A stretch of DNA of 64,000 bases from Verrucomicrobiota bacterium (GCA_029573725.1 JAKQDQ010000178.1:337174-401173); one strand, 5' to 3'. Numbered from the stretch's first letter, positions 40,572 through 59,326 are shown. Program-made: numbers and translations. Notes: generated from the letters alone by a model not told the origin.

Positions 40572-40869
40572 GTGCGCCGCGCGGGCCGGCCTCAAAACCG
40601 CAGCCGGACTGAACCGCGCCCAATCGAGCAGCAGAAGCCGGGGGGCAGGACGCGGGGTTTTGTTGGTTCGCGTGTTCCATTGCTTTCGCCGTCTTCCCGA
40701 CGATGCCCGGCAAAACCACAACCGCGGGCGACGCGCTTCACGAGGTTGCCGGACCAAACCGGCGCGCAAGCGCCCAGCCGGACCGGCAAAATCACGAATT
40801 TCACTTTCTCTTCATGTTTGGCCTGCTATGGATGGGCAGACGAGAGCCTGTCGCCAGGCGCGGAAGCCG

Positions 40870-41520
40870 ATGAGAATTCTAGCCGTTGAAGATCAGCCTG
40901 ACCTGCTGCGGACGATTGCCAAGACGCTGCGCGAGAATGGCTATGCCGTGGATACGGCGCGGGATGGGCGGGACGGACTGGAGAAGGCGCGGAGTGTGGA
41001 TTATGACCTGGTCCTCCTGGATGTCATGCTTCCCGAACTGGATGGCTGGGAGGTCCTGCGCCAGCTTCGCAAGGAAAAGAAGACGCCCGTGTTGATGCTC
41101 ACCGCGCGGGATGCCGTGCCCGACCGCGTCAAGGGCTTGAACAGTGGCGCGGATGACTACCAAACCAAACCGTTCGAGTTTGATGAACTGCTGGCGCGGA
41201 TCAATGCCCTGATTCGACGCGCCGCGGGCCAGGCCGAACCCAATCTGAGGATTCAAGATCTGGAGATTGATACGGCGGGAAAGCGTGTCTTCAAAAATGG
41301 AGCGGAAGTGACGTTGACGGCCCGCGAATATTCGCTGCTGGAGTTTCTGGCGTTGCGGCGCGGGCAGGTGGTCACGCGCACCATGCTTTACGATCATTTG
41401 CTCGACGAGGAGGATGACTCGCTTTCCAACCTCATGGACGTTTATGTCGCCTCGATCCGGCGCAAGCTGGGTGCCGAACTCATTGTCACGCGGCGCGGGC
41501 TCGGCTATTTGATCGAATGA
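40870..41520 (+). CDS. OmpR-family response regulator
   Basis: MRILAVEDQPDL...LVLLDVMLPELDG...MLTARD...GADDYQTKPF receiver domain plus a winged-helix output (LTAREYSLLEFL...IVTRRGLGYLI). Confidence 0.92.
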   Translation: MRILAVEDQPDLLRTIAKTLRENGYAVDTARDGRDGLEKARSVDYDLVLLDVMLPELDGWEVLRQLRKEKKTPVLMLTARDAVPDRVKGLNSGADDYQTKPFEFDELLARINALIRRAAGQAEPNLRIQDLEIDTAGKRVFKNGAEVTLTAREYSLLEFLALRRGQVVTRTMLYDHLLDEEDDSLSNLMDVYVASIRRKLGAELIVTRRGLGYLIE

Positions 41521-42917
41521 ACCTGTTCCACTCCATTCGCTGGCGGTTGCAACTCTGGCACGGTGCCGTCCTGCTCATGGTGCTGACCGCCTTTGGCTTC
41601 ACGGCGTATCGGCTCGCCTATGAAAACCGTTTTCGGATGATTGACCGCGAGCTGCAAAAGGCCACGGAGCGGCTGTTCAAGTCCTTCGCGCCGAAAGACC
41701 ATGACGCCAAAGGGAAGCCGCCGCCACCGGACTTTTCCAAGGGCCCGGTGGACATGCTGGCGCGGGTGGACATTCCCGAACCGGAGGACACCTATTATGC
41801 CTTCCTGGAAAATGGGACCATCAAGCGCGCGTCAAAAAACGCGCCGGCGGACATTCCCCCACCGCAAGCGTTCTTCGAAGGCGCGGCGATTCGCATGCGC
41901 GGAGAGTGGCGCGAGCAGGTCATGTGCAAAAACCCCAACGCGAGCCTGGTGATTGGGCGGTCCGTGGCCACGGACCTCGCCGATTTGCACCGGCTGGCCT
42001 GGATCATGGGACTGGTCGGCGCCGCGGTGGCGGCGTTCGGACTGATCGGGGGATGGTGGATTGCCAACGGCGCCATCCGGCCGGTCCACGACATCAGCGA
42101 AACGGCCTCAAAAATCGCCGGAGGCAATCTCGCCGAACGCATCAAAGTTCCCCATGCCGGCAACGAGCTCGGGCCCCTCGCGCACACCCTCAATTCCACC
42201 TTTGACCGGCTGCACGTCGCCTACGAACAGCTCCGCGCGGCGCTGCAACGACAAACCGACTTTACGGCGGATGCGTCGCATGAGTTGAGAACGCCCGTCT
42301 CCGTGATTCTCGCCGAGACCTCGTCCACGCTGGCGCGGGACCGAACGACGGAGGAATACCAGGAATCCCTGGAATCCATCCAGCGGTCGGCCCGCCGCAT
42401 GCGCCAACTCACCGAATCGCTGCTGACGCTGGCGCGACTGGACTCGAACCACAATTCCGAACGCGTCCGGTGCGACGTGCAAATCCTCACCCGGGAAATC
42501 CTGGAGGGGTTGCGGCCGCTGGCGGCGCAGCATCAGGTGAGTCTGAGCGAGGATTTGTCACCTGTGGCCATGACTGCAAATCCGGCGCAGATCGGGCAGG
42601 TGATCGAAAACCTGCTGAGCAACGCCATTCACCATAGCCGGCCGGGTGGGACTTGCCGGATCAAGGTGACGCTGGACAATGGATCGCCCACCATTACGGT
42701 GAGCGATGACGGCCCCGGCATTGCTGCAACGGATTTGCCGCATATTTTTGAGCGCTTTTACCGGGCGGACAAATCACGCTCCCAAACCCACGGCGGCGTC
42801 GGGTTGGGGCTGGCCATCGCGAAGGCCATCATCGAGGCGCACCAGGGCAACATCTCCGTCTCCAGCCAGCCCGGAAAAGGTTCAATCTTCACCGTCCGGT
42901 TCGCTCCGGGGAATTAG
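41517..42917 (+). CDS. sensor histidine kinase (TM-periplasmic-TM, HAMP, HisKA, HATPase_c)
   Basis: ATGA overlap with the regulator. H-box FTADASHELRTPVS, N-box NLLSNAIHH, G-boxes DDGPGI and GGVGLGLAIAK. Confidence 0.9.
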   Translation: MNLFHSIRWRLQLWHGAVLLMVLTAFGFTAYRLAYENRFRMIDRELQKATERLFKSFAPKDHDAKGKPPPPDFSKGPVDMLARVDIPEPEDTYYAFLENGTIKRASKNAPADIPPPQAFFEGAAIRMRGEWREQVMCKNPNASLVIGRSVATDLADLHRLAWIMGLVGAAVAAFGLIGGWWIANGAIRPVHDISETASKIAGGNLAERIKVPHAGNELGPLAHTLNSTFDRLHVAYEQLRAALQRQTDFTADASHELRTPVSVILAETSSTLARDRTTEEYQESLESIQRSARRMRQLTESLLTLARLDSNHNSERVRCDVQILTREILEGLRPLAAQHQVSLSEDLSPVAMTANPAQIGQVIENLLSNAIHHSRPGGTCRIKVTLDNGSPTITVSDDGPGIAATDLPHIFERFYRADKSRSQTHGGVGLGLAIAKAIIEAHQGNISVSSQPGKGSIFTVRFAPGN

Positions 42918-43039
42918 ACCGAAAAAATTTCCCCCCGCATGGTCGTTTCACGTTCCTTTCATGTTCATTCTGCGACAATGGGCGGGATGATTATGGTTGC
43001 CAGCTCACTACAGATTTGGGTCAACGGAGGTCGGAACCG

Positions 43040-43693
43040 ATGAAATGGAAAAGCGTTTTACTTCTGTGCCTGGTCTCAGCCGTATCCGGGTGGGTGGGAT
43101 ACTACCTGGGCGCCATGCGCAACCCGGGTGCCATGCGGCTCGCCGGAGATTCCGGGGTGGCCCTGGATTATCTGGTTTCAACGAAATCCTTTTCGGAGGT
43201 CGAGCAGGCCCGGGCCGTTTTGGATGCTCTGGCTGGGCAATACGCTCAAAGCGCCGAACGCTTGATTGTCCAGGAGCACCTGAGCCAGCAGTTCGACTAC
43301 CGGGTTCGGATGTCCAACCCAGAACGCCCCACGGTCGCCGCCATCCATTTGCTCGATGAAGCTCTGCCCGAATTCCGGGGCACCGAAGCGGAATTACGAT
43401 TGCTGCAACCACTGCTCATCGCGCTCAAGCGGGAGAAACTTTACGACCGCTGGTTGGATGCCTATCTGGATGCCTTGTACCGGCATCCGACCCACGAAAT
43501 GATGAGCACGCTGGCGGCCGAGGCGCTCGGGATCGGTCAGACCGTGGGGCGGGAGCAGGAACTGACCGCCGGCCTTCGTTACGTCAGTGATTTTCCGTTC
43601 CATTTTCCGGCCAAATCAAAGATCGAACATACGTTGATGAGCGCCCTCGCCAGAACCCGATTCGCCGGCCACGACCATGAATGTCCATTGTGA
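43040..43693 (+). CDS. membrane-anchored hypothetical protein
   Basis: ATG at 43040, preceded by GGAGG 9 nt upstream. N-terminal anchor WKSVLLLCLVSAVSGWVGYYL, helical remainder. Overlaps the next gene by 17 nt. Confidence 0.55.
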   Translation: MKWKSVLLLCLVSAVSGWVGYYLGAMRNPGAMRLAGDSGVALDYLVSTKSFSEVEQARAVLDALAGQYAQSAERLIVQEHLSQQFDYRVRMSNPERPTVAAIHLLDEALPEFRGTEAELRLLQPLLIALKREKLYDRWLDAYLDALYRHPTHEMMSTLAAEALGIGQTVGREQELTAGLRYVSDFPFHFPAKSKIEHTLMSALARTRFAGHDHECPL

Positions 43694-44219
43694 CCAAACC
43701 CGGCAGCGGCTGCCCGCCGCCCGCAACACACTCTGGATTTTCGCCAGCGCCCTGATGGGACTGCTGCTGGTATTCCGGACGCATTACTCCCTGTATCTGA
43801 CCAAGGGTGAAAGCATGCTCCCGGGCCTGCAATCCGGTGATTTGGTCCTGGTGGACAAGCTGGCCTACCGGACAACGGAGCCCGAACGGGGTGACATTGT
43901 GGTGGCGCGCGATCACGATGACCTGATCGTCAAGCGCGTCGTGGGACTGCCGGGTGAGGAAATCGAATTGGTGCAGGGAAAACTCCGGGTCAACCGGCAG
44001 CCGTTCCCCGAAGCCTATGCCGTCGAGCCGGGTATGTTGAGCCTGCAAAGAGGCAGGTTGTGGGAAGACCGGTATGCACTACTTGGCGACAACCGTGCCG
44101 TCTCCAGTTCCACGGTCGTTCATGCGGTCGTGGCGAAGGAGCAAATCGTGGGGAAGGTGGTGCAGTCGCTGCGCCTGTGGCCGGATTGGTGGACCGCAAA
44201 GTTCAACCCGGCAGCGTGA
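43677..44219 (+). CDS. lepB: short S26-family signal peptidase I
   Basis: TM segment, GESMLPGLQSGDLVLV (Ser box), GDIVVA, IVKRVVGLPGEEI (Lys box), LLGDNRAVS. Confidence 0.72.
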   Translation: MNVHCDQTRQRLPAARNTLWIFASALMGLLLVFRTHYSLYLTKGESMLPGLQSGDLVLVDKLAYRTTEPERGDIVVARDHDDLIVKRVVGLPGEEIELVQGKLRVNRQPFPEAYAVEPGMLSLQRGRLWEDRYALLGDNRAVSSSTVVHAVVAKEQIVGKVVQSLRLWPDWWTAKFNPAA

Positions 44220-44371: not shown

Positions 44372-46489
44372 ATGACAGCAATGAAGCAACAGAAACCAGC
44401 ACCAGAAATGGGATTCCGCCCCTCGCACTCCGGAGGCGGCCCCCGCTGGCGGTGGGCCCTCGGCGTGGTGGCGGGAGCGGGTTTGATTCTGCTCGCCTTG
44501 GGGAGTGTGCTGGCTTTGCAAAAGTCCGTGCCCGCCAGCGCAACACACGAACTGAACGGGGATCGGTTGTATGACCTCACCAACGTGTGGACGGTGCATC
44601 TGAAGTTCGCGCCCGATCAATGGGAGGCGATGGAGCCAAAAGGCGGGGCCAATCCGTTCGGAGGTTTTGGCGGCGGTCCGCCACGTGGAGATCGCCCCGG
44701 TGGACCTGGTGGGCGGGGTGGGTTCAGCGTGGCGATGCTGCTGTCGCCCGTCTTCATGACGCAGGGCGACGCCAACCGTGATGATCGGTTGTCCCAGGAG
44801 GAGTTCACGACACTGGCACAAAAGTGGTTTCGGGCCTGGGATACCAATCAGACCGGAAAGCTCGACGCGGACCAGATTCGGACGGGCCTCAATGCCACCG
44901 GCAATCCGCCCGGAGCTCGCGGCCGTGGCGGGCCGGGTCGGGGACTCATGCTCCAGGGGCCGGAGGGCAAGCGCAACGGCCTGGCTTCCGCCATGGGAAT
45001 CGAGTTCGTTTACGTGCACGCCGACCTGGAATTTGCAGGGCGGCTGTTGCGAGACGTAGGCGTGCGCTACAAGGGCAACGGCACCTTCCTCGAGTCGCGG
45101 GGTTCACTCAAACGCTCGCTCAAGGTGGATCTCAATCAGTACGTGAAAGGCCAGGGGCTGGGTGAGGTGACGACCTTGACGCTGCAGAACAACGTCACGG
45201 ACGCGAGCCTGATGAACGAGGTGCTGGCGTACCGGCTCTATCGGGATGCCGGCGTTCCCGCACCCCGCACCAGTTATGCGAAGGTGTTCATCACCGTGCC
45301 GGGAAAATTCGAGCGACAATACTTTGGCCTCTACTCGATCAGCGAAAACGTGAGCAAACAATTTGCCGCCCGGCATTTTGGCACCAAGAAGGGCGCGATC
45401 TTCAAGCCCGTCACGCCCGCGCTGTTCAATTACCTGGGCGATAACTGGGCGCGGTACAACCAGACGTACGATCCCAAGACCCAGCTTTTCGACGAGCAGA
45501 AGCAGGCGGTGATGGATTTGTGCCGCCTCGTCACCGATGCGAGCGACGCCGAGTTCGCCGCGCGGATCGGGCATCACATTGATCTGCCCGAGTTCGCGCG
45601 TTACCTGGCGGTGACGGTTTACCTCTCGGACCTGGACGGGATTCTCGGCCCGGGACAGAACTTTTATCTGCATCTGCACCCGAAGACCCAACTGTTCCAG
45701 TTCATCCCGTGGGACCAAGATCATTCGTGGGGGCAGTTCAATCGCGCCAGCCAGGAGCAACGCGATCAGTTGAGCGTTCTTCACCCGTGGCAGGGCGAGA
45801 ATTTTTTCCTCGAACGCATGTTCAAGGTGGAAGCGTTCAAAAATCTGTATCTGGCCCGGCTGGACGAGTTCAGCAAAACAATCTTCGCACCCGAACGCTT
45901 CGCCCGTCAGGTGGACGAAATCGCCGCCGTCATCCGCCCGGCCGTCCAGGAGGAGTCCGAAGCCAAACTTGAGCGGTTCGACAAGGCGGTCGCGGGCGAA
46001 ATCCTCACCGGTGGCGGATTCGGTCCGTTTGGCGGTTCCGGGATCAAACCGATCAAACCCTTCACCGTGGTGCGAACCGAGTCGGTGCGCGATCAAGTGG
46101 CCGGTCGGTCGGAAGGTCTGGTGGCGGGCGGCTTCGGGTTTCCGGGAGGCGGCGGCGGGGGTTCGGGCGGCGGTCCGCCGCGTGGAGGCGGTCCCGGCGG
46201 ACCCGGCGGGCGGGGTGGTTTTGGCCCGGGCATGATCTTCGCCGAACCTTTGCTCAAGGCCTTGGATGAAAACAAGGACTCCGCCGTAACGCGCGACGAG
46301 TTCGTCCAGGGATTTGCACGGCTCTTCGAGGCGTGGAACACGGACAAGGGCGGTTCGCTGACGGAGCAACAACTTCGCTCCGGAATCGAAAAGGATTTGT
46401 CCCCACCTCGGGGTGAATTCCCGCCCTTTGGCCGGCCTCCGGGCCAGGGTTCCGCACCCCCAGGACCGGATCAACCGTCGCCACCCTGA
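44372..46489 (+). CDS. exported CotH kinase-family protein flanked by duplicated Gly/Pro/Arg-rich plus EF-hand-like modules
   Basis: First ATGs at 44372 and 44381 (the track start at 44288 is TTG). TM/signal segment WALGVVAGAGLILLALGSVLAL. CotH-like core (LKVDLNQY...LQNNVTDASLMNEVLAYRLYRDAGVPAPR...NFYLHLHPKTQLFQFIPWDQDHSWG). EF-hand-like loops DANRDDRLSQEE, DTNQTGKLDADQ, DENKDSAVTRDE, NTDKGGSLTEQQ. Confidence 0.78.
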   Translation: MTAMKQQKPAPEMGFRPSHSGGGPRWRWALGVVAGAGLILLALGSVLALQKSVPASATHELNGDRLYDLTNVWTVHLKFAPDQWEAMEPKGGANPFGGFGGGPPRGDRPGGPGGRGGFSVAMLLSPVFMTQGDANRDDRLSQEEFTTLAQKWFRAWDTNQTGKLDADQIRTGLNATGNPPGARGRGGPGRGLMLQGPEGKRNGLASAMGIEFVYVHADLEFAGRLLRDVGVRYKGNGTFLESRGSLKRSLKVDLNQYVKGQGLGEVTTLTLQNNVTDASLMNEVLAYRLYRDAGVPAPRTSYAKVFITVPGKFERQYFGLYSISENVSKQFAARHFGTKKGAIFKPVTPALFNYLGDNWARYNQTYDPKTQLFDEQKQAVMDLCRLVTDASDAEFAARIGHHIDLPEFARYLAVTVYLSDLDGILGPGQNFYLHLHPKTQLFQFIPWDQDHSWGQFNRASQEQRDQLSVLHPWQGENFFLERMFKVEAFKNLYLARLDEFSKTIFAPERFARQVDEIAAVIRPAVQEESEAKLERFDKAVAGEILTGGGFGPFGGSGIKPIKPFTVVRTESVRDQVAGRSEGLVAGGFGFPGGGGGGSGGGPPRGGGPGGPGGRGGFGPGMIFAEPLLKALDENKDSAVTRDEFVQGFARLFEAWNTDKGGSLTEQQLRSGIEKDLSPPRGEFPPFGRPPGQGSAPPGPDQPSPP

Positions 46490-46533
46490 TCGCGCAACAT
46501 TTTCCAAGCACAACTCCAATCAAGCCAACAACC

Positions 46534-47220
46534 ATGCAAATCGAACAATCCCTCCGTGAACTATTGTGGAATCCTGAAATGGTCGCTTCCTTGCCCAAGC
46601 TCGTCCTGAGCCTCGGCATCGCCGCCTTGCTCGGCGTCATTCTGGGACAGGTTTATATCCGCTTCGGGCAGTCCCTCTCCAACCGCCGGCTCTTTGCCCG
46701 GAACTTCCTCGTGCTGGTGGTAACCACGACGCTGATCATCAGCATCGTCCGTTCCTCCCTGGCGCTTTCGCTGGGCCTCGTGGGCGCGTTGTCCATCGTG
46801 CGATTTCGCGCCGCCATCAAGGAGCCTGAGGAACTGGCCTTTTTGTTCCTCGCCATCAGCATCGGGCTGGGATTGGGCGCAGGCCAGGCTTTGGTCACCA
46901 TCGTCGCCCTGGCCATCATCCTCGGTCTCATCATCCTTCGCGGCCTGACCCGGTCCACGCCGGGAAATCCCAATCTCTACCTGACCGTCACCACGCCGGC
47001 CCAGGCGCAGTTGGGTGCCGACCAGATGCTCAAGACCCTGGCGGAAGTTGGCGCGACGGCCAGCTTGAAACGCTTTGATCAATCGGCCGATCAACTCGAA
47101 GCGGCTTTCCACGTGGACTTCAAACAAGTCGCCCACCTCGAACGGTTTTCCCAGCGGCTTCGCGAGTTGAGCCCCAACGTCCGGGTGAGCTGTCTCGAAG
47201 ACCGCGGTCTCCATTCCTAG
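46534..47220 (+). CDS. DUF4956 family membrane protein
   Basis: Four or five TM helices and the hallmark LGLVGALSIVRFRAAIKEPEELAFLFLAISIGLGLG. Confidence 0.78.
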   Translation: MQIEQSLRELLWNPEMVASLPKLVLSLGIAALLGVILGQVYIRFGQSLSNRRLFARNFLVLVVTTTLIISIVRSSLALSLGLVGALSIVRFRAAIKEPEELAFLFLAISIGLGLGAGQALVTIVALAIILGLIILRGLTRSTPGNPNLYLTVTTPAQAQLGADQMLKTLAEVGATASLKRFDQSADQLEAAFHVDFKQVAHLERFSQRLRELSPNVRVSCLEDRGLHS

Positions 47221-47248
47221 AAATCCCCATCAACTTTTCAAGCCGCCG

Positions 47249-47941
47249 ATGACTGCCGGTTTCCGCTACGAGCGCAAGTTTCTGCCGTCAGACCTCGATC
47301 TCGCCAGGGCGCTGGCGGTCGTGCATCGCCATCCCAGTCTCTTTCGGGAGGTTTATCCCCCACGGCTGGTGAACAACATCTATCTGGATTCCCCCCGGCT
47401 GGACAACTATCACGATCACGTCAATGGCACCGCAAACCGGAGCAAAACCAGGGTGCGTTGGTATGGCCACCCGCGCAGCCTCATCGAAAACCCGGCGCTC
47501 GAACAAAAAATAAAACGCGGCACGGTCAGCCGGAAGGAAACCCACCCGCTGCCGTCCCTCCGCCTGGAAGGTGAGACCGCCCGTTCCCGCCTCGACGAAA
47601 CATTCCGGATCGCTTCACTTCCGGAACTGTTACGGTCCAGGTTGCAACACCTGCAACCCTCGCTCTTTAACTGTTACCGGCGGCATTACTTCCTGAGCCA
47701 GGACCGGCGGTTCCGGCTGACTGTGGACTCGGACCTGAGATTCGAAGGCATTGACGGAAACACAAATGTCACCGGCGCGTCCGCTTCCACGGCGCTTCAT
47801 CCCTCCGGCTTTGTCATCATCGAGTTGAAGTATTCCGCGGAAAACGCCGGACTCGCCGACGCGGTGACCAACGCCCTTCCCTTCCGCGTGACGCGCTGCT
47901 CGAAGTACATCCTCGGCATTCAATGCGCCGTGCCGGCCTGA
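47249..47941 (+). CDS. VTC-domain (polyphosphate polymerase-like, CYTH/triphosphate-tunnel) protein
   Basis: FRYERKFL...FREVYPPRLVNNIYLDSPRLDNYHDHVNG...SKTRVRWYG...FVIIELKY. No TM segment. Confidence 0.68.
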   Translation: MTAGFRYERKFLPSDLDLARALAVVHRHPSLFREVYPPRLVNNIYLDSPRLDNYHDHVNGTANRSKTRVRWYGHPRSLIENPALEQKIKRGTVSRKETHPLPSLRLEGETARSRLDETFRIASLPELLRSRLQHLQPSLFNCYRRHYFLSQDRRFRLTVDSDLRFEGIDGNTNVTGASASTALHPSGFVIIELKYSAENAGLADAVTNALPFRVTRCSKYILGIQCAVPA

Positions 47942-49762: not shown

Positions 49763-49848
49763 AGTTGCGCCCCGCCGCCGGCGGGATTGGAGAGCGCCCG
49801 GCGAACAAAATTATTGCCACGCGCACCGCCGTTTGGCTTCATGTTGGG

Positions 49849-50163
49849 ATGGCACAAACGGCCGGAACTGCGGGCTCTGCTCCGAGCGAACGTCGCCGGA
49901 TGCAGATTCTGTATTCCGGGCACGTTCAAGGAGTCGGATTTCGTTACACGGTCCAAACCCTGGCGGCAGGTTATGCGGTCACGGGGTCGGTGCGGAATCT
50001 GCCCGATGGCCGGGTGGAATTGACTGCGGAAGGAACTCCCGAAGAACTGGAAGCATTTCGCGCGGCTGTTCGCACGGGCGGCCTGGGCGCCAACATCCGG
50101 CAGGAAGAAGCGCAGTGGACACCCGCCCGGGGCGGCCTCGCCGGATTTGCCATCGAGCGATAA
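49849..50163 (+). CDS. acylphosphatase
   Basis: YSGHVQGVGFRYT and GSVRNLPDGRVEL motifs. Start uncertain (ATG 49849 or 49900). Confidence 0.78.
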   Translation: MAQTAGTAGSAPSERRRMQILYSGHVQGVGFRYTVQTLAAGYAVTGSVRNLPDGRVELTAEGTPEELEAFRAAVRTGGLGANIRQEEAQWTPARGGLAGFAIER

Positions 50164-50171
50164 TTTATTCA

Positions 50172-50894
50172 ATGAAGTTTGCGATCATAGCCGACATCCA
50201 CGGAAATTGGGAGGCCTTTCAAGTCGTACTGGCGGATGCGAAGGAACAGCGGGTGACCCATTACGCCTGTCTGGGCGATGTGGTGGGTTACAATGCCAAC
50301 CCCAAGGAATGCCTGGATCTGGTGCGGGAAATGAACATTCCCTGCGTCAAAGGGAATCACGACGAGTATTGCTCGAGCGAGGACCAGTTGGAGGGATTCA
50401 ATCCCGCCGCCGCCGAGGCCGTCAACTGGACGCGCAAACAACTGACCGCGGACGACCGCCAGTGGCTGCGTGACTTGAAATACTCCCGGATGGTCACCCA
50501 CTTCACGATCGTTCATGCCACCCTGGACGGACCGCAGCGGTGGGGTTATGTCTTCGACAAGCTGGCGGCCGCCGCCAGCTTCACCTACCAAAACACCGCG
50601 TTGTGTTTCTTTGGCCACACCCATGTGCCGGTTGCCTTTGTGAAGGACAGCGTCGTGCGGGGCGGCACTTACTCGAAGTTCAAAATCGAGCCGGGCAAGA
50701 AGTATTTCATCAATGTCGGTGCCGTGGGCCAGCCGCGGGACAACAATCCCAAGGCCGCCTATGTGGTTTTTGACAGCACGGAAGGCACCATTGAACTGCG
50801 CCGGCTGGAGTACGACATTCCCGCCGCGCAAAAGAAGATTCGTGCCGCCGGGCTGCCGGAGCGCCTGGCCGAACGCCTGGCTTACGGTCGCTAA
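50172..50894 (+). CDS. metallophosphoesterase (YfcE/MJ0936-like)
   Basis: MKFAIIADIHGN, CLGDVVGY, KGNHDE, FFGHTHVP, INVGAVGQPRD. Confidence 0.85.
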   Translation: MKFAIIADIHGNWEAFQVVLADAKEQRVTHYACLGDVVGYNANPKECLDLVREMNIPCVKGNHDEYCSSEDQLEGFNPAAAEAVNWTRKQLTADDRQWLRDLKYSRMVTHFTIVHATLDGPQRWGYVFDKLAAAASFTYQNTALCFFGHTHVPVAFVKDSVVRGGTYSKFKIEPGKKYFINVGAVGQPRDNNPKAAYVVFDSTEGTIELRRLEYDIPAAQKKIRAAGLPERLAERLAYGR

Positions 50895-50981: not shown

Positions 50982-51905
50982 ATGAGCCACCCACTGCAAC
51001 TGATTCGCGTCATTTCGGAAGGACGGCCCGGCCACGAGAATCAAAGCGCGGGTCTGGCGTTTGCCCTGGCGCGGCGCACGGGCGCCTGGGTGGAAGTGGT
51101 GCGAATTCCTCCGACTTGGAACCTCCTCACCCGTTGCCGCGCGGCGTTGTCATCCGGCCCCACCCGTCCGCAACTGGTGATCGGCGCCGGGCACAAGGTG
51201 CATTTACCGCTCTGGTTTGCCGCCCGGAAGTTCCACGCGCGCTCGGTGGTCATCATGGAGCCCACCTGGCCGAAGCGCTGGTTTGACCTGTGCATCCTGC
51301 CCCGGCACGACACCGCCCCCGGCCAATCATCCGCCCGCATCATCGTCACCCTGGGCGCGTTGAATCGCATTCCCGAAGACATTCCCGCCAAACAACCGCA
51401 GGGCCTCATGTTGATCGGTGGTCCGTCGCGGGCCTGCGGGTGGGATGCGCCCGGGCTGATTGCCGCGATCACCACGGTGATTCGCACCCGGTCCGAACTG
51501 GCCTGGACCATCACCGACTCGCGCCGCACGCCCGCCGGTTTTCTCGAACAACTGGGGGCGGTCGGACTGTCCGCCACCGTGGTTCCGCACCAGCAAACAC
51601 CCGCCGGCTGGGTGCCGGCGCACCTGCTCACGGCCGCCGAAGCGTGGGTGACTGCTGACAGCGTTTCCATGATTTTTGAGGCGGTGACGGCCCGGGCGCG
51701 GACGGGCGTGATTCCGGTGCCGGCCATCCGACCCGGCGCATCGCCGGTTCGCGCCATCCAAACGCTGATTCGCGAGGGTTACGCCACCACGTTTGACCAT
51801 TGGCAGCGCAACGGGCGGCAGCTGGTTTCCGCCAAGCCGCTGCAGGAGACTGGACGGTGTGCGGAGCTGGTGCTCGAACGGTTATCTTTCCACGCGGCCG
51901 CATGA
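50982..51905 (+). CDS. ELM1/DUF1022-family protein (glycan-cluster associated)
   Basis: GRPGHENQSAGLAFAL near the N-terminus, ~300 aa. First gene of the plus-strand glycan arm. Confidence 0.55.
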   Translation: MSHPLQLIRVISEGRPGHENQSAGLAFALARRTGAWVEVVRIPPTWNLLTRCRAALSSGPTRPQLVIGAGHKVHLPLWFAARKFHARSVVIMEPTWPKRWFDLCILPRHDTAPGQSSARIIVTLGALNRIPEDIPAKQPQGLMLIGGPSRACGWDAPGLIAAITTVIRTRSELAWTITDSRRTPAGFLEQLGAVGLSATVVPHQQTPAGWVPAHLLTAAEAWVTADSVSMIFEAVTARARTGVIPVPAIRPGASPVRAIQTLIREGYATTFDHWQRNGRQLVSAKPLQETGRCAELVLERLSFHAAA

Positions 51906-53017
51906 AAGTTCTGCAAATTCTTCCGGAATTGCATGCCGGTGGTGTGGAATGCAGCGTCTTGGAAATTGCCCGCCACCTCGTGCAACAGGGTCACGAGGCG
52001 CTGGTGGTTTCCCATGGCGGCCGTCTGGTGGCCGGGCTGGAAGCTTTCGGAGCGCGGCATATTGCCATGCCAGTTCACCGCAAGCGGCTGAGCTCGGTAT
52101 TTCAAGTGGCCCGGCTGCGCCGGCTGCTGGCGCTCGAACGTCCGGACCTGTTGCATCTGCATTCCCGCGTGCCGGGATGGATCGGCTGGCTGGCCTGGCG
52201 GAAATTGCCGCCGGCCACGCGGCCGCGACTGGTCAGCACCGTGCATGGATTCTACTCGGTGAACGCCTACTCCGCCGTCATGATGCGCGGCGAACGGGTG
52301 ATCGCCGTATCCGAATGTATTCGGAATTATATCGAGCAAAATTTTCCGCGGACGCCCGTCGCGGCGATCCGGGTGGTGCGCAATGGCGTTAACCCGGCCG
52401 ATTATCCGCGCGGCTATCAACCCGGCGCGGATTGGATTGCGGGGTGGCAACGCGACTATCCGCAGTGCGTCGGCAAACGCCTGCTGCTGTTGCCGGGGCG
52501 CATCACACGCTTGAAGGGGCACCCGGATTTTTTGCGATTGATCGCCGCGTTGGCCGCAACCGACCCGCAAGTTCATGGACTGATTGTGGGCGACCTCCAC
52601 CCCCGCAAGCGCGCCTACCGGAAGGAACTGGAGCGGCTGACGACCCGGCTCGGGCTGGCGCCGCATCTCACCTTCCTCAAGCACCGCGCCGACCTGCGGG
52701 AAATCATGGCCGTGTCCGCACTGGTGTATTCCCTGTCCACACAGCCGGAATCATTCGGGCGCACCACCCTGGAAGCGCTCGCCCTGGGGCGTCCGGTGGT
52801 GGGTTACGATCATGGCGGCGTCGGCGAGTTATTGGGTCAGTTATTTCCCGCCGGGCGCGTTCCGTTGGGCAATGAAGCAGCGCTCGCGACGGTTTCGCGC
52901 AAGTTGCTGGCCGATCCGGTCTGGCCGGCGCCCGTCCCTGCTTCCCTCACCCTGGCCGTCATGCTGCGGCATACGCTCGACGTTTACCACGAGTTGCTCG
53001 CCGCCGCCCGCGCTTGA
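51902..53017 (+). CDS. GT4-family glycosyltransferase
   Basis: ATGA overlap with the upstream gene. MKVLQILPELHAGGVE N-terminus and a C-terminal ESFGRTTLEALALGRPVVG (E-X7-E-type) motif. Confidence 0.8.
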   Translation: MKVLQILPELHAGGVECSVLEIARHLVQQGHEALVVSHGGRLVAGLEAFGARHIAMPVHRKRLSSVFQVARLRRLLALERPDLLHLHSRVPGWIGWLAWRKLPPATRPRLVSTVHGFYSVNAYSAVMMRGERVIAVSECIRNYIEQNFPRTPVAAIRVVRNGVNPADYPRGYQPGADWIAGWQRDYPQCVGKRLLLLPGRITRLKGHPDFLRLIAALAATDPQVHGLIVGDLHPRKRAYRKELERLTTRLGLAPHLTFLKHRADLREIMAVSALVYSLSTQPESFGRTTLEALALGRPVVGYDHGGVGELLGQLFPAGRVPLGNEAALATVSRKLLADPVWPAPVPASLTLAVMLRHTLDVYHELLAAARA

Positions 53018-53020
53018 ACC

Positions 53021-53911
53021 ATGCACCGCGCCGTCATCGCCATCGTCAAGGGAGGGTTGGGCAATCAATTGTTCATTTATGCGGCAGCGCGGGCGCTCGC
53101 GTTGCGGACGGGACGGACGTTATATCTGGATGCCACTCGCGGCTATACCCGGGACGATTATGGCCGCAATTACCGGCTGGACCGGTTTCCGATCGAGGCG
53201 GAAGTGATGCCGGAGGCCTGGCGGATTGCGCCAACGCTGAAACATTTCCGGCACAAGCTCATCCGGGCCGGCAGCAAGCTGCTCCCGCGCAATCAACGGA
53301 CTTATCTGGCCGAGCACTGGCACCGGCCCCCCACGCAGCTCACCGCGCTGCGGCCGCGCCGGAAACGCCTCACGCTGCTGGGCTACTGGCAGAATGAAGC
53401 CTATTTTGCCGATCATGCTGCCACCATCCGTGCCGAACTCACGCCACCCCCGCCAACCGACACCCAGGACCAGGCGCTCGGCGAAAAATTCGCCACATGC
53501 GAATCCATCTTTCTGCACTTCCGCCGCGTCCGATACTGGAATCTGTTGGGCAGTGATTATTATCAGACGGCCATAGATGCCGCGCTCGCCAAGCTTCCCC
53601 GGCCGCATTTTGTCCTGTTCGGCGACGACTTGAACTGGCCCCGGCAACACTTGGATTTTCGCGGCGCGAGCCAGGAATGCGTCAACCACAACTCCGGGGA
53701 TGAACTCGCCGACCTCTGGTTGATGAGCCGCTGCCGGCACGCGATCGTGGCGAACAGCTCCTTCAGTTGGTGGGGCGCGTGGCTGGGGGAGGCCGCGCTG
53801 CCGCGGTTGGTCTTTGCGCCGCAACAAACCGGCTGGCCCCTCGTCATGCCGCCCCGCTGGCAACGGATTGCCAACGTCCTGGATTCCAGCGAAACTGGGC
53901 GTCCACAATGA
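53021..53911 (+). CDS. GT11-family glycosyltransferase (alpha-1,2-fucosyltransferase-like)
   Basis: GGLGNQLFIYA, LLGYWQNEAYF, FVLFGDDLNW, MSRCRHAIVANSSFSWWGAWL. Confidence 0.72.
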   Translation: MHRAVIAIVKGGLGNQLFIYAAARALALRTGRTLYLDATRGYTRDDYGRNYRLDRFPIEAEVMPEAWRIAPTLKHFRHKLIRAGSKLLPRNQRTYLAEHWHRPPTQLTALRPRRKRLTLLGYWQNEAYFADHAATIRAELTPPPPTDTQDQALGEKFATCESIFLHFRRVRYWNLLGSDYYQTAIDAALAKLPRPHFVLFGDDLNWPRQHLDFRGASQECVNHNSGDELADLWLMSRCRHAIVANSSFSWWGAWLGEAALPRLVFAPQQTGWPLVMPPRWQRIANVLDSSETGRPQ

Positions 53912-54660
53912 AAGCGCTGCGCAACGTGTTCAAATTGGCCGTCCAGTTCCCGGCGCGCCCAACCGACGTGTTTTGGTTTTGGAAAACCTATGGACAATGG
54001 CAGCGGGCCGCGCCGCCGGAGTGGCGGGCGCGCCTGGCGGAACTCAAGCCCATGCTTCAGGACCGGCATGCCCCGGCGGGCAGCGCGCAGGGGCATTATT
54101 TTTTGCAGGACTTGTGGGCGGCACAACGAGTCTGGCGATTGCGCCCGGAGGAGCACGTGGATGTGGGGAGCCGGGTGGACGGATTCGTTGCGCACGTGGC
54201 CAGTTTTTGTCCGGTGAAGTACGTGGACATCCGCCCGCTCCGGACCGGAGTGCCGGGGTTGACCGGGGTGCAAGGTTCCGTCTGCGAGCTGCCGTTTGCC
54301 GATCAGTCGGTGCGGAGTTTGAGTTGTCTGCATGTGATCGAGCACATCGGTCTGGGGCGTTATGGCGATCCCCTTGAACCCCAAGGCTGGTTGCGGGGTC
54401 TGGCGGAATTACAACGGGTGCTCGCGCCGGGCGGCCAATTGTTGTTGGGCACACCGTGCGGCCGGTCCCGGGTGGTGTTTCATGCACATCGGGTGTTTGA
54501 TCCGGCGCAGATCGCTGCCGCCCTGCCCGAACTGCAGCTCCAGGAATTTTCCCTGATCCGGGATGGGGCCGCCACTGCCTGGCAGGAACGCGTGCCGCTC
54601 ACCGCCGCGCGCGATCTGGACTATGGATGCGGGCTGTTTGTCTGGGCGCGTCCCGGTTGA
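53908..54660 (+). CDS. DUF268-like class I SAM-dependent methyltransferase
   Basis: ATGA overlap with the upstream gene. VDVGSRVDGF, LSCLHVIEHIGLGRYGDPLEPQG, LAPGGQLLLGTP. Confidence 0.55.
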   Translation: MKALRNVFKLAVQFPARPTDVFWFWKTYGQWQRAAPPEWRARLAELKPMLQDRHAPAGSAQGHYFLQDLWAAQRVWRLRPEEHVDVGSRVDGFVAHVASFCPVKYVDIRPLRTGVPGLTGVQGSVCELPFADQSVRSLSCLHVIEHIGLGRYGDPLEPQGWLRGLAELQRVLAPGGQLLLGTPCGRSRVVFHAHRVFDPAQIAAALPELQLQEFSLIRDGAATAWQERVPLTAARDLDYGCGLFVWARPG

Positions 54661-54669
54661 GTCCAGCCA

Positions 54670-55674
54670 ATGAATCCAGCCGCCTCCCCCTGGTCGCCCC
54701 GGTTGCGGGTGCGCGTGTCTTCCGCGGGATTGCCGGGCGGATTGGAACTGTTCACTCCCGGAGCAGGCTTGTCATGGGGCAACTGCCAGTTTTCACTGTC
54801 GGCAGCCGATGACGCCGAATGCGACTATTGGATTGTTCTGGCGAATGCGTTTCCGCGGGAAACGGGTTGGGTCGCACCGGAGAACACCCTGTTTATTGCC
54901 GGCGAACCCCCGGCCAAAAAGGTGTACCCCCGCGGGTTCTACCGGCAGTTCGCGCGCATCGTGGACACGCACGATGGCTCGCGACATCCCCGAGTACATC
55001 TGGATGCGCCGGGTCTGCCCTGGCTGGCAGGGTTGAGCTGGCGGCAACAGCGCTACACACTGGGATACGACGTGCTGCGGGGGCTGGCGCCGCCCGCGAA
55101 GCAAAACTTGATTTCGGTCGTGTGTTCGACCACCGCCCAGACCGCCGGGCAACGTCGCCGCCTGCAATTTCTGGCCGCGCTCCGCCAACGGCTGGGCGGG
55201 GACCTGTTGATTTTTGGGAAAGGGTTTCGTCCGGTGGATGACAAGCTCGAAGCCATTCTGCCGTATCGCTATCATCTGGTGCTTGAAAACAGTCAAAGTC
55301 CGCACTATTGGACGGAAAAACTGGCCGACGCCTTTCTGGGCTGGGCTTTCCCGCTTTACGTGGGCTGTCCCAATCTAGGCGATTATTTTGCGCGGGAATG
55401 TTTTCTGGCATTGGACATGAGCGACGTGGAGGGGGCGGTGCGGCGGTTGCGCCAACGGCTGGCCACTCCGCTTTCCCCGCGCGAGCAGCAGGCGCTGCAA
55501 CTGGCCCGCACCCGGGTGCTGGAGGTTTACAACCCCTTCGCGCGATTTGCCGCCTGGGCAAATAAATTTTATGCTCCGGGGCGGCGGGAACGGGTGACGA
55601 TTCAATCGGCCAAGGCGTTTCGTTTCCTGCGCGGCTGGTTCTACCGGTGGCAGCACCGGTCGCCGGCCGCATGA
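54670..55674 (+). CDS. GT10-like glycosyltransferase (alpha-1,3/4-fucosyltransferase family)
   Basis: ISVVCS...YRYHLVLENSQSPHYWTEKLADAFLG, resembling the GT10 (F)ENS...Y(V)TEK motif. Confidence 0.62.
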   Translation: MNPAASPWSPRLRVRVSSAGLPGGLELFTPGAGLSWGNCQFSLSAADDAECDYWIVLANAFPRETGWVAPENTLFIAGEPPAKKVYPRGFYRQFARIVDTHDGSRHPRVHLDAPGLPWLAGLSWRQQRYTLGYDVLRGLAPPAKQNLISVVCSTTAQTAGQRRRLQFLAALRQRLGGDLLIFGKGFRPVDDKLEAILPYRYHLVLENSQSPHYWTEKLADAFLGWAFPLYVGCPNLGDYFARECFLALDMSDVEGAVRRLRQRLATPLSPREQQALQLARTRVLEVYNPFARFAAWANKFYAPGRRERVTIQSAKAFRFLRGWFYRWQHRSPAA

Positions 55675-56595
55675 TCAGGACACGACGCGCCAGCCGGGCG
55701 GAAGCCATTGCTCGGACGGCCGTTGCGGCATCAGCAGGAGGTCGGTCCCCGTGAAGGCGGCCCCGTGTCGAACCAGCAAATCGCCATATTCCCTGAGCCG
55801 CCACAGTTCCCGGCGCTTCACGCTGGCGTAGCAATACACCTCGAATTGTGCGCGCAGCCGGGCGAAGAAAGCCTCCGGGACCACTCCCGCCCATTGCATG
55901 AACTGCGGCGTGAATTCGATGAAGCCGAACGCGTGTTGGACGCGGGCCAGCGTGGCGGTAAAACCCGCGAGTGCGCGGCTTTCGTAGCCTTCAATGTCCA
56001 TTTTGAACAACAATGTCTTGCCGGTGGCGACCGGCGCGGGAATCAGCGCATCCAGGGTTCGCGCGGGCAATTTGAACTCGATGTGCCGGTGCGTTGCATT
56101 CATTTGCCGTACGGCGGAAGAACTCCCGCTCCATTCCGGGTTGACCAGAAAAGGGACGTCCTCGGCCGGCGCGTCGGCGACAAGACAATGGGTGAGAGTG
56201 ATGCGCGCGCCGGCGGGGTGCTGCTGCCGGCTGCGTTCCAGATAAGGAATCAGGCGGGGATTGGCTTCAAAACCATACAGGGTTGCATTGGCGGCATACT
56301 GGGTGCCGAACAGGCATTCGCCATAATTCAACCCCACATCCACGACGAGATCGGGCTGGAGATGCGCATTAAACTCACGCCAGAAGATCAGGTTGCTGGA
56401 AACTTTGCCGCGCAGGGGCTCCTGCACCACCTTCTTGATGGCGCAGGGGTCATCGGGATCAATGTAAATCCAGTTGTCACTCTGATGCAGTCGCGCGCGG
56501 TGCGGCCGCGTGGTGCCGTAACGCAGGAAGGTGAGCGGCAGCAAATAGGCCTGTTTGAACGCCCGCTCAAGACGAGGATACAGGGGCGGAGTCAT
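55675..56595 (-). CDS. FkbM-family methyltransferase
   Basis: VVDVGLNYGE, LYGFEANP, LFKMDIEGYESRAL. Its stop abuts the convergent GT10 stop (TGATCA). Confidence 0.7.
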   Translation of the reverse strand: MTPPLYPRLERAFKQAYLLPLTFLRYGTTRPHRARLHQSDNWIYIDPDDPCAIKKVVQEPLRGKVSSNLIFWREFNAHLQPDLVVDVGLNYGECLFGTQYAANATLYGFEANPRLIPYLERSRQQHPAGARITLTHCLVADAPAEDVPFLVNPEWSGSSSAVRQMNATHRHIEFKLPARTLDALIPAPVATGKTLLFKMDIEGYESRALAGFTATLARVQHAFGFIEFTPQFMQWAGVVPEAFFARLRAQFEVYCYASVKRRELWRLREYGDLLVRHGAAFTGTDLLLMPQRPSEQWLPPGWRVVS

Positions 56596-57398
56596 GCGCG
56601 GGCGGGCGCGCGTCGCGCCACAAAGTTGGTGGTGGCAAACTGTTCCTCCGTTTCGCGATAGCGCCGGATGCGGCTGAAGTAACGCCCGGGGGTCAGACGG
56701 TACAGCTGCATCCCCCGGGCGCTGAAGAACTGGTGGAAATCGCGCAAAAATATCCGCGTGTCAATGTTGCAACCGCCAAATTCAAAGGTGACCAAATCCA
56801 CCGCCCGACGCGCAAATAGATCGATCCCGCCCCGGAGAACGTCCAGTTCGTGCCCCTCCACATCCAGTTTGAGCCAGTCAATGTGCGGCACCCGCTTCTC
56901 CGTGCAGTAGGCGTCCAGCGTGGAGAGCGTGATGGTTTCGTGCCGCGCAAATTGAATGTCCCGAAACCCGAGGTCCCGCCGCGTCAGCGAGGCGAGCCCC
57001 GATTTTTCCTCGTCGTAATACAACTCGGCCGTTCCCGCCGCCGCCCCGAGGCCGCAATGATTCAAGACCACCCCGGGATGCGCGGGCCGCGCCTGTTGCA
57101 ACGCGGCAAATGTTGCCGCCGCCGGCTCGAAGGAGTGGATGGCCCCCAACCGGCCCCCCAGCTGGCTGACGGCGAGATTCAGAAATTGACCGCAATTGGC
57201 GCCGACATCAAACACCACGAGGTTGGATTTTCGGTTCCGCGCCAAATGCCGCATCACGGCCACTTCACCGCTGTCATCCACGTCGCCCCCGGCTCCGATG
57301 CCCATCAGCCAATGACACAACTTCACCTGCTTGCGCAGCAGGTACTGGCCGGGCCGGTTTGCCAGCGGATATTTCAATAGATGCCGGAAGATTGCCAT
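56592..57398 (-). CDS. FkbM-family methyltransferase
   Basis: VVFDVGANCGQF, IHSFEPAAATF, IDWLKLDVEGHELDVLRG. Its stop overlaps the ATG of the next gene (55675-56595) as ATGA at 56592-56595. Confidence 0.75.
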   Translation of the reverse strand: MAIFRHLLKYPLANRPGQYLLRKQVKLCHWLMGIGAGGDVDDSGEVAVMRHLARNRKSNLVVFDVGANCGQFLNLAVSQLGGRLGAIHSFEPAAATFAALQQARPAHPGVVLNHCGLGAAAGTAELYYDEEKSGLASLTRRDLGFRDIQFARHETITLSTLDAYCTEKRVPHIDWLKLDVEGHELDVLRGGIDLFARRAVDLVTFEFGGCNIDTRIFLRDFHQFFSARGMQLYRLTPGRYFSRIRRYRETEEQFATTNFVARRAPARA

Positions 57399-57407
57399 GC
57401 GTCTTGA

Positions 57408-58463: not shown

Positions 58464-58465
58464 GT

Positions 58466-59326
58466 TCAAAAACCGGCAAGGCGTTTGCCCAGACCCCGGA
58501 AGCCATCGGCGACCAGCCCAAGCCGGATGGTGAGGCGACGGAGGGCGTGACCGGCGTAGTAACCCCACATGCCCGAAGTGGAGGTCACCGCGCGCCGCAG
58601 TTGGGGCTGCGCGTGGTAGTCCGTTGTCCGTCCGACAATGTCCGAGAAATCATCGGTTTGATTGACAATGCCGGGTGACACGCAGGTGACGGGAAACACG
58701 AGGCCGAGTTGACGTTGGTACCAACGATCAATCGCGCGATGTCGGGCGAGCCAGGGCCAGACCTGGGCCGCATCCGGCAGGCGGGCGAGAATCCACTCCC
58801 GCGCCGGTTCCCGGACGAGATACGCGTGGGCGGTGTTGCAACCCTGCACCCGGTAAAGCCCGTGTTCCGCGTCCAATTCAGTTTCCTTGCGGCGCGGCCA
58901 CCAGGGATCGGTGAAGCCCAGGTAGCACACCTCCCAATCGTACTCCTGAGACACCGCCATCAGGGCATCTGCCAGCCGGGCGAAATCCGGCGCGAAGGCC
59001 ACGTCATCCTCAAGAATCAACACGGTTTTCCAGTTGGCGGCCCGGGCCCGCAGCAAGGCTTGCCGGTGGGACAACAAACAACCTGCGCGCCCCGCCCAGC
59101 GGCGGTCGCGGGGGCGACCTCGAAACCAGGGCCGCCGCCCAAAACCCGGGACGTCCGTGCCCTGGATGGCCGGAAGCCGCTGCAATTTTTCGGCCGGCAC
59201 GATGTGCTGTGCGGCGGCCTGGAACGTGGCCCATCGGTCCGGACGGGAATCCAGATTGAGCACCAGTGCGCCGTCCACGGAGGACCAGAAGGCACGGGGG
59301 GCGGAGTGGTGAGCGGGCGCGATCAT
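58466..59326 (-). CDS. GT25-family glycosyltransferase (LPS beta-1,4-galactosyltransferase-like)
   Basis: LVLNLDSRPDRW, GCLLSHRQAL, VLILEDDVAF. The first ATG (59326) forms an ATGA overlap with the upstream stop; the track start at 59335 is TTG. Confidence 0.68.
   Translation of the reverse strand: MIAPAHHSAPRAFWSSVDGALVLNLDSRPDRWATFQAAAQHIVPAEKLQRLPAIQGTDVPGFGRRPWFRGRPRDRRWAGRAGCLLSHRQALLRARAANWKTVLILEDDVAFAPDFARLADALMAVSQEYDWEVCYLGFTDPWWPRRKETELDAEHGLYRVQGCNTAHAYLVREPAREWILARLPDAAQVWPWLARHRAIDRWYQRQLGLVFPVTCVSPGIVNQTDDFSDIVGRTTDYHAQPQLRRAVTSTSGMWGYYAGHALRRLTIRLGLVADGFRGLGKRLAGF

Follow-up and report, generated by a model that had tools for sequence, protein, structure and literature searches.

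Three adjacent genes on the + strand of a 64,000-nucleotide (nt) stretch from a Verrucomicrobiota bacterium (GCA_029573725.1, JAKQDQ010000178.1:337174-401173; hereafter the window) encode a CotH-family kinase-like protein, a DUF4956 membrane protein and a stand-alone VTC-domain protein. The best explanation of the evidence presented below is that this trio forms a self-contained, horizontally mobile envelope module whose parts are distributed over three compartments, and the three proteins very probably act together. The three genes are as follows, with lengths in amino acids (aa).

44372..46489, + strand: cotH-family gene (gene 1), 705 aa from the ATG at 44372; matches Pfam CotH and the Bacillus cereus CotH structure 5jd9
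46534..47220, + strand: DUF4956 membrane protein gene (gene 2), 228 aa; matches Pfam DUF4956
47249..47941, + strand: stand-alone VTC-domain protein gene (gene 3), 230 aa; matches Pfam VTC

An earlier note, made from the sequence alone, had described three genes on the same strand separated by only 44 and 28 nt, and the open reading frames (ORFs) were found exactly there, with 44 nt between genes 1 and 2 and 28 nt between genes 2 and 3. For gene 1, an alternative TTG start lies at 44288, upstream of the ATG at 44372. The three families named in the earlier note were confirmed by Pfam profile search, in each case above the gathering cut-off: gene 1 matches CotH (PF08757, E=1.3e-54, residues 231-531), with EF-hand matches at residues 150-177 and 626-648 on either side of the CotH core; gene 2 matches DUF4956 (PF16316, E=4e-11, residues 51-135, 43.4 bits against a cut-off of 30.6); and gene 3 matches VTC (PF09359, E=6.4e-27, residues 36-226, 95.1 bits against a cut-off of 23). 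In NCBIfam, genes 2 and 3 matched no model. The quoted motifs were also all present, namely GALSIVRFRAAIKEPEEL at residues 84-101 of gene 2 and FRYERKF, VNNIYLDSPRLDNYHDHVNG and RVRWYG in gene 3, as was the transmembrane or signal segment of gene 1.

A terminator scan found no terminator-like hairpin on the + strand inside the trio, and a promoter scan found no sigma-70-like promoters. Terminator-like sites were rarer in the scan than in shuffled sequences, and the scan is uninformative apart from the hairpin-free trio and a hairpin behind an upstream histidine kinase gene (described below). Membership of the trio in an anti-phage defence system was dropped as a candidate, since a PADLOC search at E<=0.01 gave zero matches for the three proteins and the upstream ORF.

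Conservation of the trio across genomes

One genome per species was scanned with the VTC profile, which gave 420 confirmed loci, and the best 80 were retrieved; loci are referred to by L numbers. The members of the trio were located by hidden Markov models built locally from the three proteins of the window and run on six-frame ORFs. Because the 80 loci were those that matched a verrucomicrobial query best, the sample is taxonomically biased; moreover, the taxon labels of metagenome-assembled genomes (MAGs) may be wrong.

In 77 of the 80 loci, VTC is immediately preceded by DUF4956 on the same strand, and in 66 of the 80, CotH is found on that strand within 8 kilobases (<=8 kb). The order CotH-DUF4956-VTC is seen in 44 of the surveyed loci and DUF4956-VTC-CotH in 11; several loci contain a pair of CotH paralogues, and at two loci the CotH gene stands between DUF4956 and VTC. 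In ten taxonomically distant partners, including that of a Methanosarcina locus, CotH was also identified by Pfam, one of them slightly under the gathering score. The cassette occurs in Verrucomicrobiota, Planctomycetota, Chloroflexi, Deltaproteobacteria, Bacteroidales, KSB1, Sumerlaeia and Methanosarcina/Methanogenium, and look-ups centred on DUF4956, which drew on precomputed Pfam labels, recovered the trio from Methanosarcina, Sedimentisphaerales and Omnitrophota. The homologues nearest to the window proteins belong to Verrucomicrobiota MAGs of Limisphaerales/Pedosphaerales type; at locus L001, DUF4956 is 95% and VTC 76% identical to the window protein. Across the loci, DUF4956 is the most conserved of the trio, with a median identity of 66%, and the other two proteins have medians of about 50%. 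The linkage of the trio is beyond chance, and the synteny in other genomes that the earlier note had expected holds in several bacterial phyla and in methanogens.

Neither clustering of ORFs nor Pfam annotation of the 130 immediately flanking genes (171 families, with a maximum of 7 proteins per family) revealed conserved additional neighbours; the top flank families were response regulators (7/130) and PQQ beta-propellers (6/130). Because the flanking genes are heterogeneous, the three genes can be regarded as a conserved unit, that is, an autonomous cassette. When pairwise distances are compared among the three proteins, the matrices are correlated (Mantel r 0.57-0.77), a result of little weight, since shared vertical descent would also produce a positive value. 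The methanogenic archaea Methanosarcina and Methanogenium carry the cassette at L068, L074, L084, L085 and L092, and the archaeal DUF4956 proteins share 45-48% identity with the verrucomicrobial one. The presence of the cassette in methanogenic archaea implies inter-domain transfer of the whole unit.

The association could also be a loose one, in which VTC and DUF4956 serve, like MgtC, the homeostasis of phosphate or polyphosphate (polyP) in the cytoplasm, and CotH, an exported kinase unrelated to them, is no more than a frequent neighbour. The 11 of 80 loci in which DUF4956-VTC has no CotH in the flank are consistent with this explanation. On the other hand, the genes are tightly linked on the same strand in distant phyla and in archaea, where their order varies but their membership is constant. 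We consider a loose association very unlikely; the comparison with MgtC that also bears on it is given with gene 2.

The earlier note knew of no experimental description of the trio as a unit, a claim that does not stand, because the genes have been reported as accessory genes of pel loci (bioRxiv 10.1101/768473; PMC12345266). In the work of Whitfield et al. (2020, bioRxiv 10.1101/768473), the accessory genes reported to adjoin the pel operons of Streptococci, Clostridia and Bifidobacteria include cotH, a "poly-phosphate polymerase", DUF4956 and DUF4832. In Streptococcus intermedius, each of the genes SIR_1594-1592 has been modelled and deleted; the CotH and DUF4956 mutants aggregate less, the aggregation is Pel-dependent, and the two deletions changed Pel levels in opposite directions (mBio 2025, PMC12345266). 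The authors of that study did not find the synteny of the trio outside pel loci (PMC12345266). The present survey, with dozens of pel-free loci, corrects this published claim.

The window trio resembles the accessory genes of Gram-positive pel loci in that the same three Pfam families are contiguous on one strand and include a secreted CotH. It differs from them in order (cotH-DUF4956-VTC in the window versus cotH-VTC-DUF4956 at pel loci), in the EF-hand/RGG modules that its CotH carries in place of FN3, in having no DUF4832 glycoside hydrolase, and in its host, a Gram-negative-type Verrucomicrobium. Contiguity with pelDEADAFG is absent from the window between 38.6 and 58.6 kb, and no pel-type family recurs in the flanks of the 80 loci. 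The window copy is a pel-independent variant of the known trio; besides its EF-hand modules and its different order, a signal peptidase I paralogue upstream and a two-component system specific to the lineage set it apart.

Sequence features and predicted location of the three proteins

The following segments of genes 1 and 2 were delimited.

44456..44518, + strand: N-terminal hydrophobic segment of gene 1, residues 29-49, signal anchor or signal peptide, from hydropathy
44714..44911, + strand: module 1 of gene 1, Gly/Arg-rich stretch and EF-hand pair, residues 115-180, N-terminal to the kinase core (EF-hand_6, E=4.8e-11)
45062..45964, + strand: CotH kinase core of gene 1, residues 231-531, from Pfam and the 5jd9 alignment
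46211..46408, + strand: module 2 of gene 1, Gly/Arg-rich stretch and EF-hand pair, residues 614-679, C-terminal to the kinase core
46753..46836, + strand: near-invariant DUF4956 core of gene 2, residues 74-101, SSLALSLGLVGALSIVRFRAAIKEPEEL, helix 3 and predicted cytoplasmic loop

In the CotH protein, the roles of residues were taken from the 5jd9 alignment and from the D228Q mutant cited in PMC7821199. The kinase-like core of gene 1 aligns with B. cereus CotH (5jd9) at E=2e-15, including the LDG, QNF and PWDQD motifs, and both proteins have the Asp and Asn of the catalytic loop as well as the Asp that binds metal. Among the cassette CotH proteins, K247, D422 and D448 are present in 42 of 42 and N430 in 34 of 42. 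In contrast to Bacillus CotH, the window protein is predicted to be exported or membrane-anchored, is twice as long and has flanking Ca-binding modules, and no CotB/CotG-like substrates adjoin its gene. Verrucomicrobiota are not known to form spores.

The N-terminal hydrophobic segment comprises 21 residues, with RWRW before it and QKSVPASA, then THE, after it, and its mean Kyte-Doolittle hydropathy is 2.35 over 19 residues. An equivalent segment is found in 46 of the 58 full-length CotH partners in other loci, and the accessory domains of the CotH partners are of extracellular type (EF-hand, PKD, LTD, Fn3-associated and beta-helix). Modules 1 and 2 represent an internal duplication (BLASTP, 32% identity over 66 aa, E=2e-9), whose basic Gly/Arg (RGG-like) stretches could, speculatively, bind a polyanion such as polyP. 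Judged by the positive-inside rule, the product of gene 1 appears to be an exported or membrane-anchored atypical kinase; the N-terminal segment and the EF-hand matches agree with the exported, Ca-binding CotH enzyme proposed in the earlier note.

The AlphaFold2 model of gene 3 has a predicted local distance difference test score (pLDDT) of 89 and a predicted template modelling score (pTM) of 0.86. When this model was compared with the PDB by Foldseek, ranks 1-13 were all occupied by the tunnel domains of Vtc4, Vtc3 and Vtc2 (best match 3g3r_B, E=8e-12, TM-score 0.65), and other triphosphate tunnel metalloenzymes (TTM; YgiF, the class IV cyclases CyaB and thiamine triphosphatase) ranked below them. 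In Vtc4, the triphosphate is liganded by K200, R264, R266, K281, R361, K458, S457 and Y359, and Mn by E426 (bioRxiv 10.1101/2023.01.27.525886). Residues were mapped from combined HMMER and hhalign alignments, with the Vtc4 189-480 sequence checked against 3g3q. By alignment, R68, R70, K87, K96, Y143 and R145 of gene 3 correspond to R264, R266, K281, K294, Y359 and R361 of Vtc4, and R156, E192, K194, S218 and K219 correspond to R373, E426, K428, S457 and K458; for K10, which lies in strand 1, and for R6, the match to K200 and R196 is one of position and not of alignment. Eight of the nine Vtc4 triphosphate/Mn2+ ligands therefore align in gene 3, and the ninth, K200, is matched by position only. 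All of the mapped residues are invariant in 22 homologues. K219 is located in the motif RCSKY, which aligns with KFSKF of Vtc4; the corresponding K458 is the single difference from the inactive Vtc2/3, where Leu/Ile is found (bioRxiv 10.1101/2023.01.27.525886).

Gene 3 encodes a bare 230-aa domain without SPX, a membrane segment or a signal sequence. With this fold and the retained Vtc4 ligands, it looks like a competent Vtc4-type enzyme, and the soluble VTC/CYTH-like tunnel protein recognised in the earlier note is upheld. Sequence and fold place it as a cytoplasmic triphosphate-tunnel enzyme of the Vtc4 type, the predicted catalytic residues being intact wherever they are alignable, and we lean slightly towards its being a polyP polymerase.

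The AlphaFold2 model of gene 2 (pLDDT 74) contains five helices (residues 14-139) followed by a C-terminal beta-alpha-beta-beta-alpha-beta domain (residues 148-222). Of the 28 positions of the core at residues 74-101, 25 are either invariant or conserved to at least 90% in a 65-sequence alignment that includes the Methanosarcina protein, and a 12-sequence alignment with two archaeal proteins shows the same conservation. The consensus SxALSLGLVGALSIVRFRxxxKEPEEL is essentially invariant from Verrucomicrobia to Methanosarcina, and the small and polar residues in the membrane helices are extremely conserved. The family comprises 6088 representative clusters (50% identity clusters) at E<=1e-3. In the Foldseek search, the C-terminal domain alone was matched, and weakly, by the PII-like SbtB, the ACT domain of aspartokinase, the C-terminal domain of MetN and ferredoxin-like folds.

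Many DUF4956 proteins carry the Joint Genome Institute (JGI) name "YhiD", and an MgtC-like label was applied to the membrane part of DUF4956 in the mBio 2025 paper (PMC12345266); both would suit the loose association considered above. The MgtC/SapB/YhiD family (PF02308) does resemble DUF4956 in having several transmembrane helices followed by a cytoplasmic ACT-like domain, but no sequence relationship is detectable by Pfam or hhalign: Pfam MgtC gave no match to DUF4956 even at E<=10, and the DUF4956 profile reached a probability of 0.16% against Escherichia coli YhiD in hhalign, whereas YhiD itself matches MgtC at 5e-39. MgtC membership was rejected accordingly. Pfam DUF202 (Vtc1-type) gave no match in gene 2 either, and, to judge by these comparisons of sequence, DUF4956 is neither Vtc1-like nor demonstrably MgtC-like.

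The orientation of gene 2 can be predicted from longer relatives. In Anaerolineae, the DUF4956 gene of the cassette is a long form (L063 6425-7957, L071 261-1718 and L075 6539-7924; P0366, P0367, P0373 and P0389); the long proteins in the representative search measure 442-502 aa. Their N-terminal fusion consists of a signal peptide, a concanavalin A-like (ConA-like)/3-keto-disaccharide-hydrolase domain and a Pro/Glu-rich linker. These proteins were also considered as VTC-DUF4956 fusions, which would have been evidence for docking; the extra domain is ConA-like, not VTC, and is silent on docking. A signal peptide and a ConA-like domain at the N-terminus of DUF4956 imply that this terminus is outside. 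Consequently, given five helices, the positive-inside rule would leave both the SNR and the RFRxxxKEPEE loops, together with the ACT-like domain, on the cytoplasmic side, and DUF4956 is predicted to be N-out/C-in with a cytoplasmic ACT/PII-like domain. Based on these topology markers, the members of the trio would therefore be located in three places, with VTC in the cytoplasm, DUF4956 in the membrane and CotH on the exterior.

A possible phosphate supply line and its alternatives

The family assignments, the conserved linkage, the intact catalytic residues in both enzymes and the topology markers were established in this analysis, and a mechanism that joins them, a modified version of the one put forward in the earlier note, may be outlined as follows. 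In the cytoplasm, the VTC protein would most likely polymerise the gamma-phosphate of ATP to polyP in its basic tunnel. DUF4956 would reside in the inner membrane, where its invariant RFRxxxKEPEE loop, which carries basic and acidic residues, its invariant SNR loop and its ACT/PII-like domain would face the cytoplasm; it would most likely dock the VTC enzyme and pass its product or phosphoryl groups outward. On the outer face, the CotH kinase, anchored or released and surrounded by its two Ca-binding EF-hand/RGG modules, would draw on the exported supply for the phosphorylation of a protein or glycan outside the cytoplasm, where ATP is lacking. A path from polyP inside through DUF4956 to CotH outside fits the predicted topology, and the finding that both the CotH and the DUF4956 deletions of S. 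intermedius altered Pel-dependent aggregation may be counted in its favour. The whole chain, for which we infer polymerase activity, docking, translocation and the use of polyP as donor, is put forward tentatively, as a possible rather than a probable account.

A stricter form of this supply line, in which DUF4956 and VTC make up a polyP synthase-exporter with a membrane part non-homologous to the yeast channel and CotH takes polyP instead of ATP as donor, is unlikely. The eukaryotic VTC complex (Vtc4/Vtc3/Vtc1) is similar in that gene 3 has the Vtc4 tunnel fold and ligand residues and is genetically coupled to a polytopic membrane protein. It is different in that gene 3 is without SPX and without a C-terminal transmembrane domain, so that the enzyme and the membrane protein are separate polypeptides; in that DUF4956 is without sequence or fold similarity to Vtc1/DUF202-type subunits; and in that an exported CotH kinase as third partner has no yeast counterpart. 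A common origin of DUF4956 with the membrane subunits of yeast VTC, or with any solved membrane protein, was rejected, because neither Foldseek nor the PDB profile search showed one. The description of VTC plus DUF4956 as a minimal counterpart of the VTC complex, which the earlier note had offered, has thus to be reduced to an analogy at most, as gene 2 has neither a DUF202 match nor a Foldseek match to the membrane chains.

Several observations weigh against the supply line. First, deletion of VTC in S. intermedius had no phenotype, unlike deletion of either neighbour (PMC12345266). Second, the trio is not always complete: a Deferribacteres MAG has a DUF4956-CotH pair without a VTC gene within 7 kb; in a second MAG (L089 6001-9382), DUF4956 stands beside a beta-helix protein of 897 aa that does not match CotH, and VTC is not found nearby either; and at L091 (6001-10638), DUF4956-VTC is followed, in the CotH position, by a 1033-aa protein with PPDK_N and phosphoenolpyruvate-utilising mobile domains. 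The bias of the 80 loci towards the verrucomicrobial query belongs here as well. Third, the membrane domain of DUF4956 is unlike known channels and the yeast VTC transmembrane subunits: the membrane part had no match in the Foldseek search of the PDB, which included the VTC complexes 8i6v and 7ytj, a profile search of PDB sequences with DUF4956 gave no match to any solved protein, and the model of gene 2 is of only moderate confidence. Fourth, a literature search found no report in which a bacterial protein of the VTC-domain or DUF4956 type was assigned a biochemical activity, and to this extent the earlier note, which knew of no experimental description of the trio, remains right. Finally, we know of no kinase-fold enzyme that uses polyP as donor.

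The VTC-less DUF4956-CotH pairs, L091 and the S. intermedius deletions favour DUF4956-CotH as the core pair. Together, the pairs, the replacement at L091 and the result of the VTC deletion keep two further explanations alive. In the first, control runs from inside to outside: VTC would produce a signal in the cytoplasm, which could be polyP, a short phosphoanhydride or some nucleotide derivative, and the ACT/PII-like domain of DUF4956 would bind it; DUF4956 would then activate, anchor or position CotH at the outer face, with no transport across the membrane. The sole structural relatives of DUF4956 are indeed ligand-sensing PII-like/ACT domains (SbtB, MetN C-terminal, aspartokinase ACT), the TTM superfamily includes class IV adenylate cyclases, which are also among the fold matches of VTC, DUF4956-CotH pairs can occur without VTC nearby, and the opposite effects of the S. 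intermedius CotH and DUF4956 mutants on Pel levels suggest regulation. However, the VTC residues correspond specifically to those of the polyP polymerase Vtc4, and Vtc proteins rank above cyclases in the fold search; the conserved small and polar residues in the membrane helices of DUF4956 suggest more than an anchor; and the phosphoryl donor of an extracytoplasmic kinase would be left unexplained. Control of this kind seems rather unlikely.

In the second explanation, the trio is an accessory module for exopolysaccharide or surface glycan, in which CotH phosphorylates the glycan or its synthesis machinery with the support of VTC and DUF4956. This addresses the target and not the mechanism, and it is compatible with either the supply line or the control model. 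The contiguity of the trio with pel operons in Streptococci, Clostridia and Bifidobacteria argues for it, as do the altered Pel level and aggregation of the S. intermedius mutants, the position of the trio within glycosyltransferase (GT) clusters in an Omnitrophota MAG and of a DUF4956-CotH pair likewise in a Deferribacteres MAG, the fusion of Anaerolineae DUF4956 to a ConA-like/3-keto-disaccharide-hydrolase-type domain, and the glycan cluster of the window (GT4, GT11, two GT10 and methyltransferases), which begins 3 kb downstream. On the other hand, GTs are not enriched among the immediate neighbours in the 80 loci, LysE, hisF, an acylphosphatase and a phosphoesterase intervene between the trio and the glycan genes of the window, and no pel-type genes are near the window trio. 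We would give a glycan role a rather low likelihood, about the same as inside-to-outside control. A general association with pel or glycan clusters was rejected for the 80 VTC-centred loci, where no family is enriched but the lineage-specific two-component system. At L081-L083 (7001-10340), a DUF4956-CotH pair is embedded in a polysaccharide cluster (Wzy_C, GT2, GT4, PMT_2 and a flippase), with VTC absent within 6-7 kb.

Genomic neighbourhood, a related locus and wider meaning

Three features lie upstream of the cassette.

40843..42917, + strand: OmpR-type response regulator and HAMP/HisKA histidine kinase, from Pfam; possible dedicated regulator
43016..43693, + strand: 225-aa protein with an N-terminal hydrophobic segment and no Pfam match; possible accessory gene
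43677..44219, + strand: signal peptidase I paralogue (Peptidase_S26, E=1.7e-27), 152 nt upstream of cotH; possible accessory gene

Orthologues of the two-component system (E 1e-84 to 1e-258) stand beside the cassette in 7 verrucomicrobial loci (L001, L020, L029, L031, L034, L036 and L041), mostly in divergent orientation. In the window, a terminator-like hairpin at 42965-42990, 3' of the histidine kinase gene, separates the two-component pair from the downstream genes. The gene of the 225-aa protein overlaps the signal peptidase gene by 17 nt, and this pair is found beside the cassette in 4 loci. In L007, L026 and L040 it is directly upstream of cotH; in L028 (2283-4368), a short contig with no cotH, it directly follows VTC, which suggests tandem cassettes or another gene order. 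In this lineage, the two-component system may regulate the module, and the signal peptidase I paralogue may process CotH, whose signal sequence is unusually long.

Between 38.6 and 58.6 kb, the neighbours of the trio are SufD, the two-component system, the 225-aa ORF, the signal peptidase, LysE, HisF, acylphosphatase, phosphoesterase and GT4/GT11/GT10. The acylphosphatase gene lies beside that of a calcineurin-like metallophosphoesterase at 49765-50894, downstream of hisF. A surface-glycan cluster with ELM1-like, GT4 and GT11 genes, two GT10 fucosyltransferase-like genes and several methyltransferase genes occupies 50982-58568, about 3 kb past the trio. Further away, an ORF at 29967-30587 starts with a prepilin-type N-terminal methylation motif. 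N_methyl/DUF1559 proteins are found near the cassette in several loci; their proximity is probably coincidental, because prepilin-type proteins are common in Verrucomicrobia and Planctomycetes.

A further system in which two of the families occur together is the pathogenicity locus NELoc-2 of Clostridium perfringens, which contains CotH and VTC-domain genes. It is similar to the cassette in having these genes on a mobile locus and different in its context of sigma/anti-sigma factors, a deacetylase and a glycosyltransferase, as compared from the description in the paper only.

DUF4956 is a large family of approximately 6000 clusters at 50% identity, with a core that is nearly unchanged from bacteria to archaea. 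The cassette bears on two questions, namely by which route polyP reaches the periplasm or the exterior in prokaryotes and which phosphoryl donor serves exported kinases where ATP is absent. Since a single operon combines a likely polyP polymerase with a membrane protein and an exported kinase, three small genes are enough to put both questions to the test. If polyP is indeed the donor, the cassette would represent an ATP-independent system of extracytoplasmic phosphorylation that is common to bacteria and methanogenic archaea.

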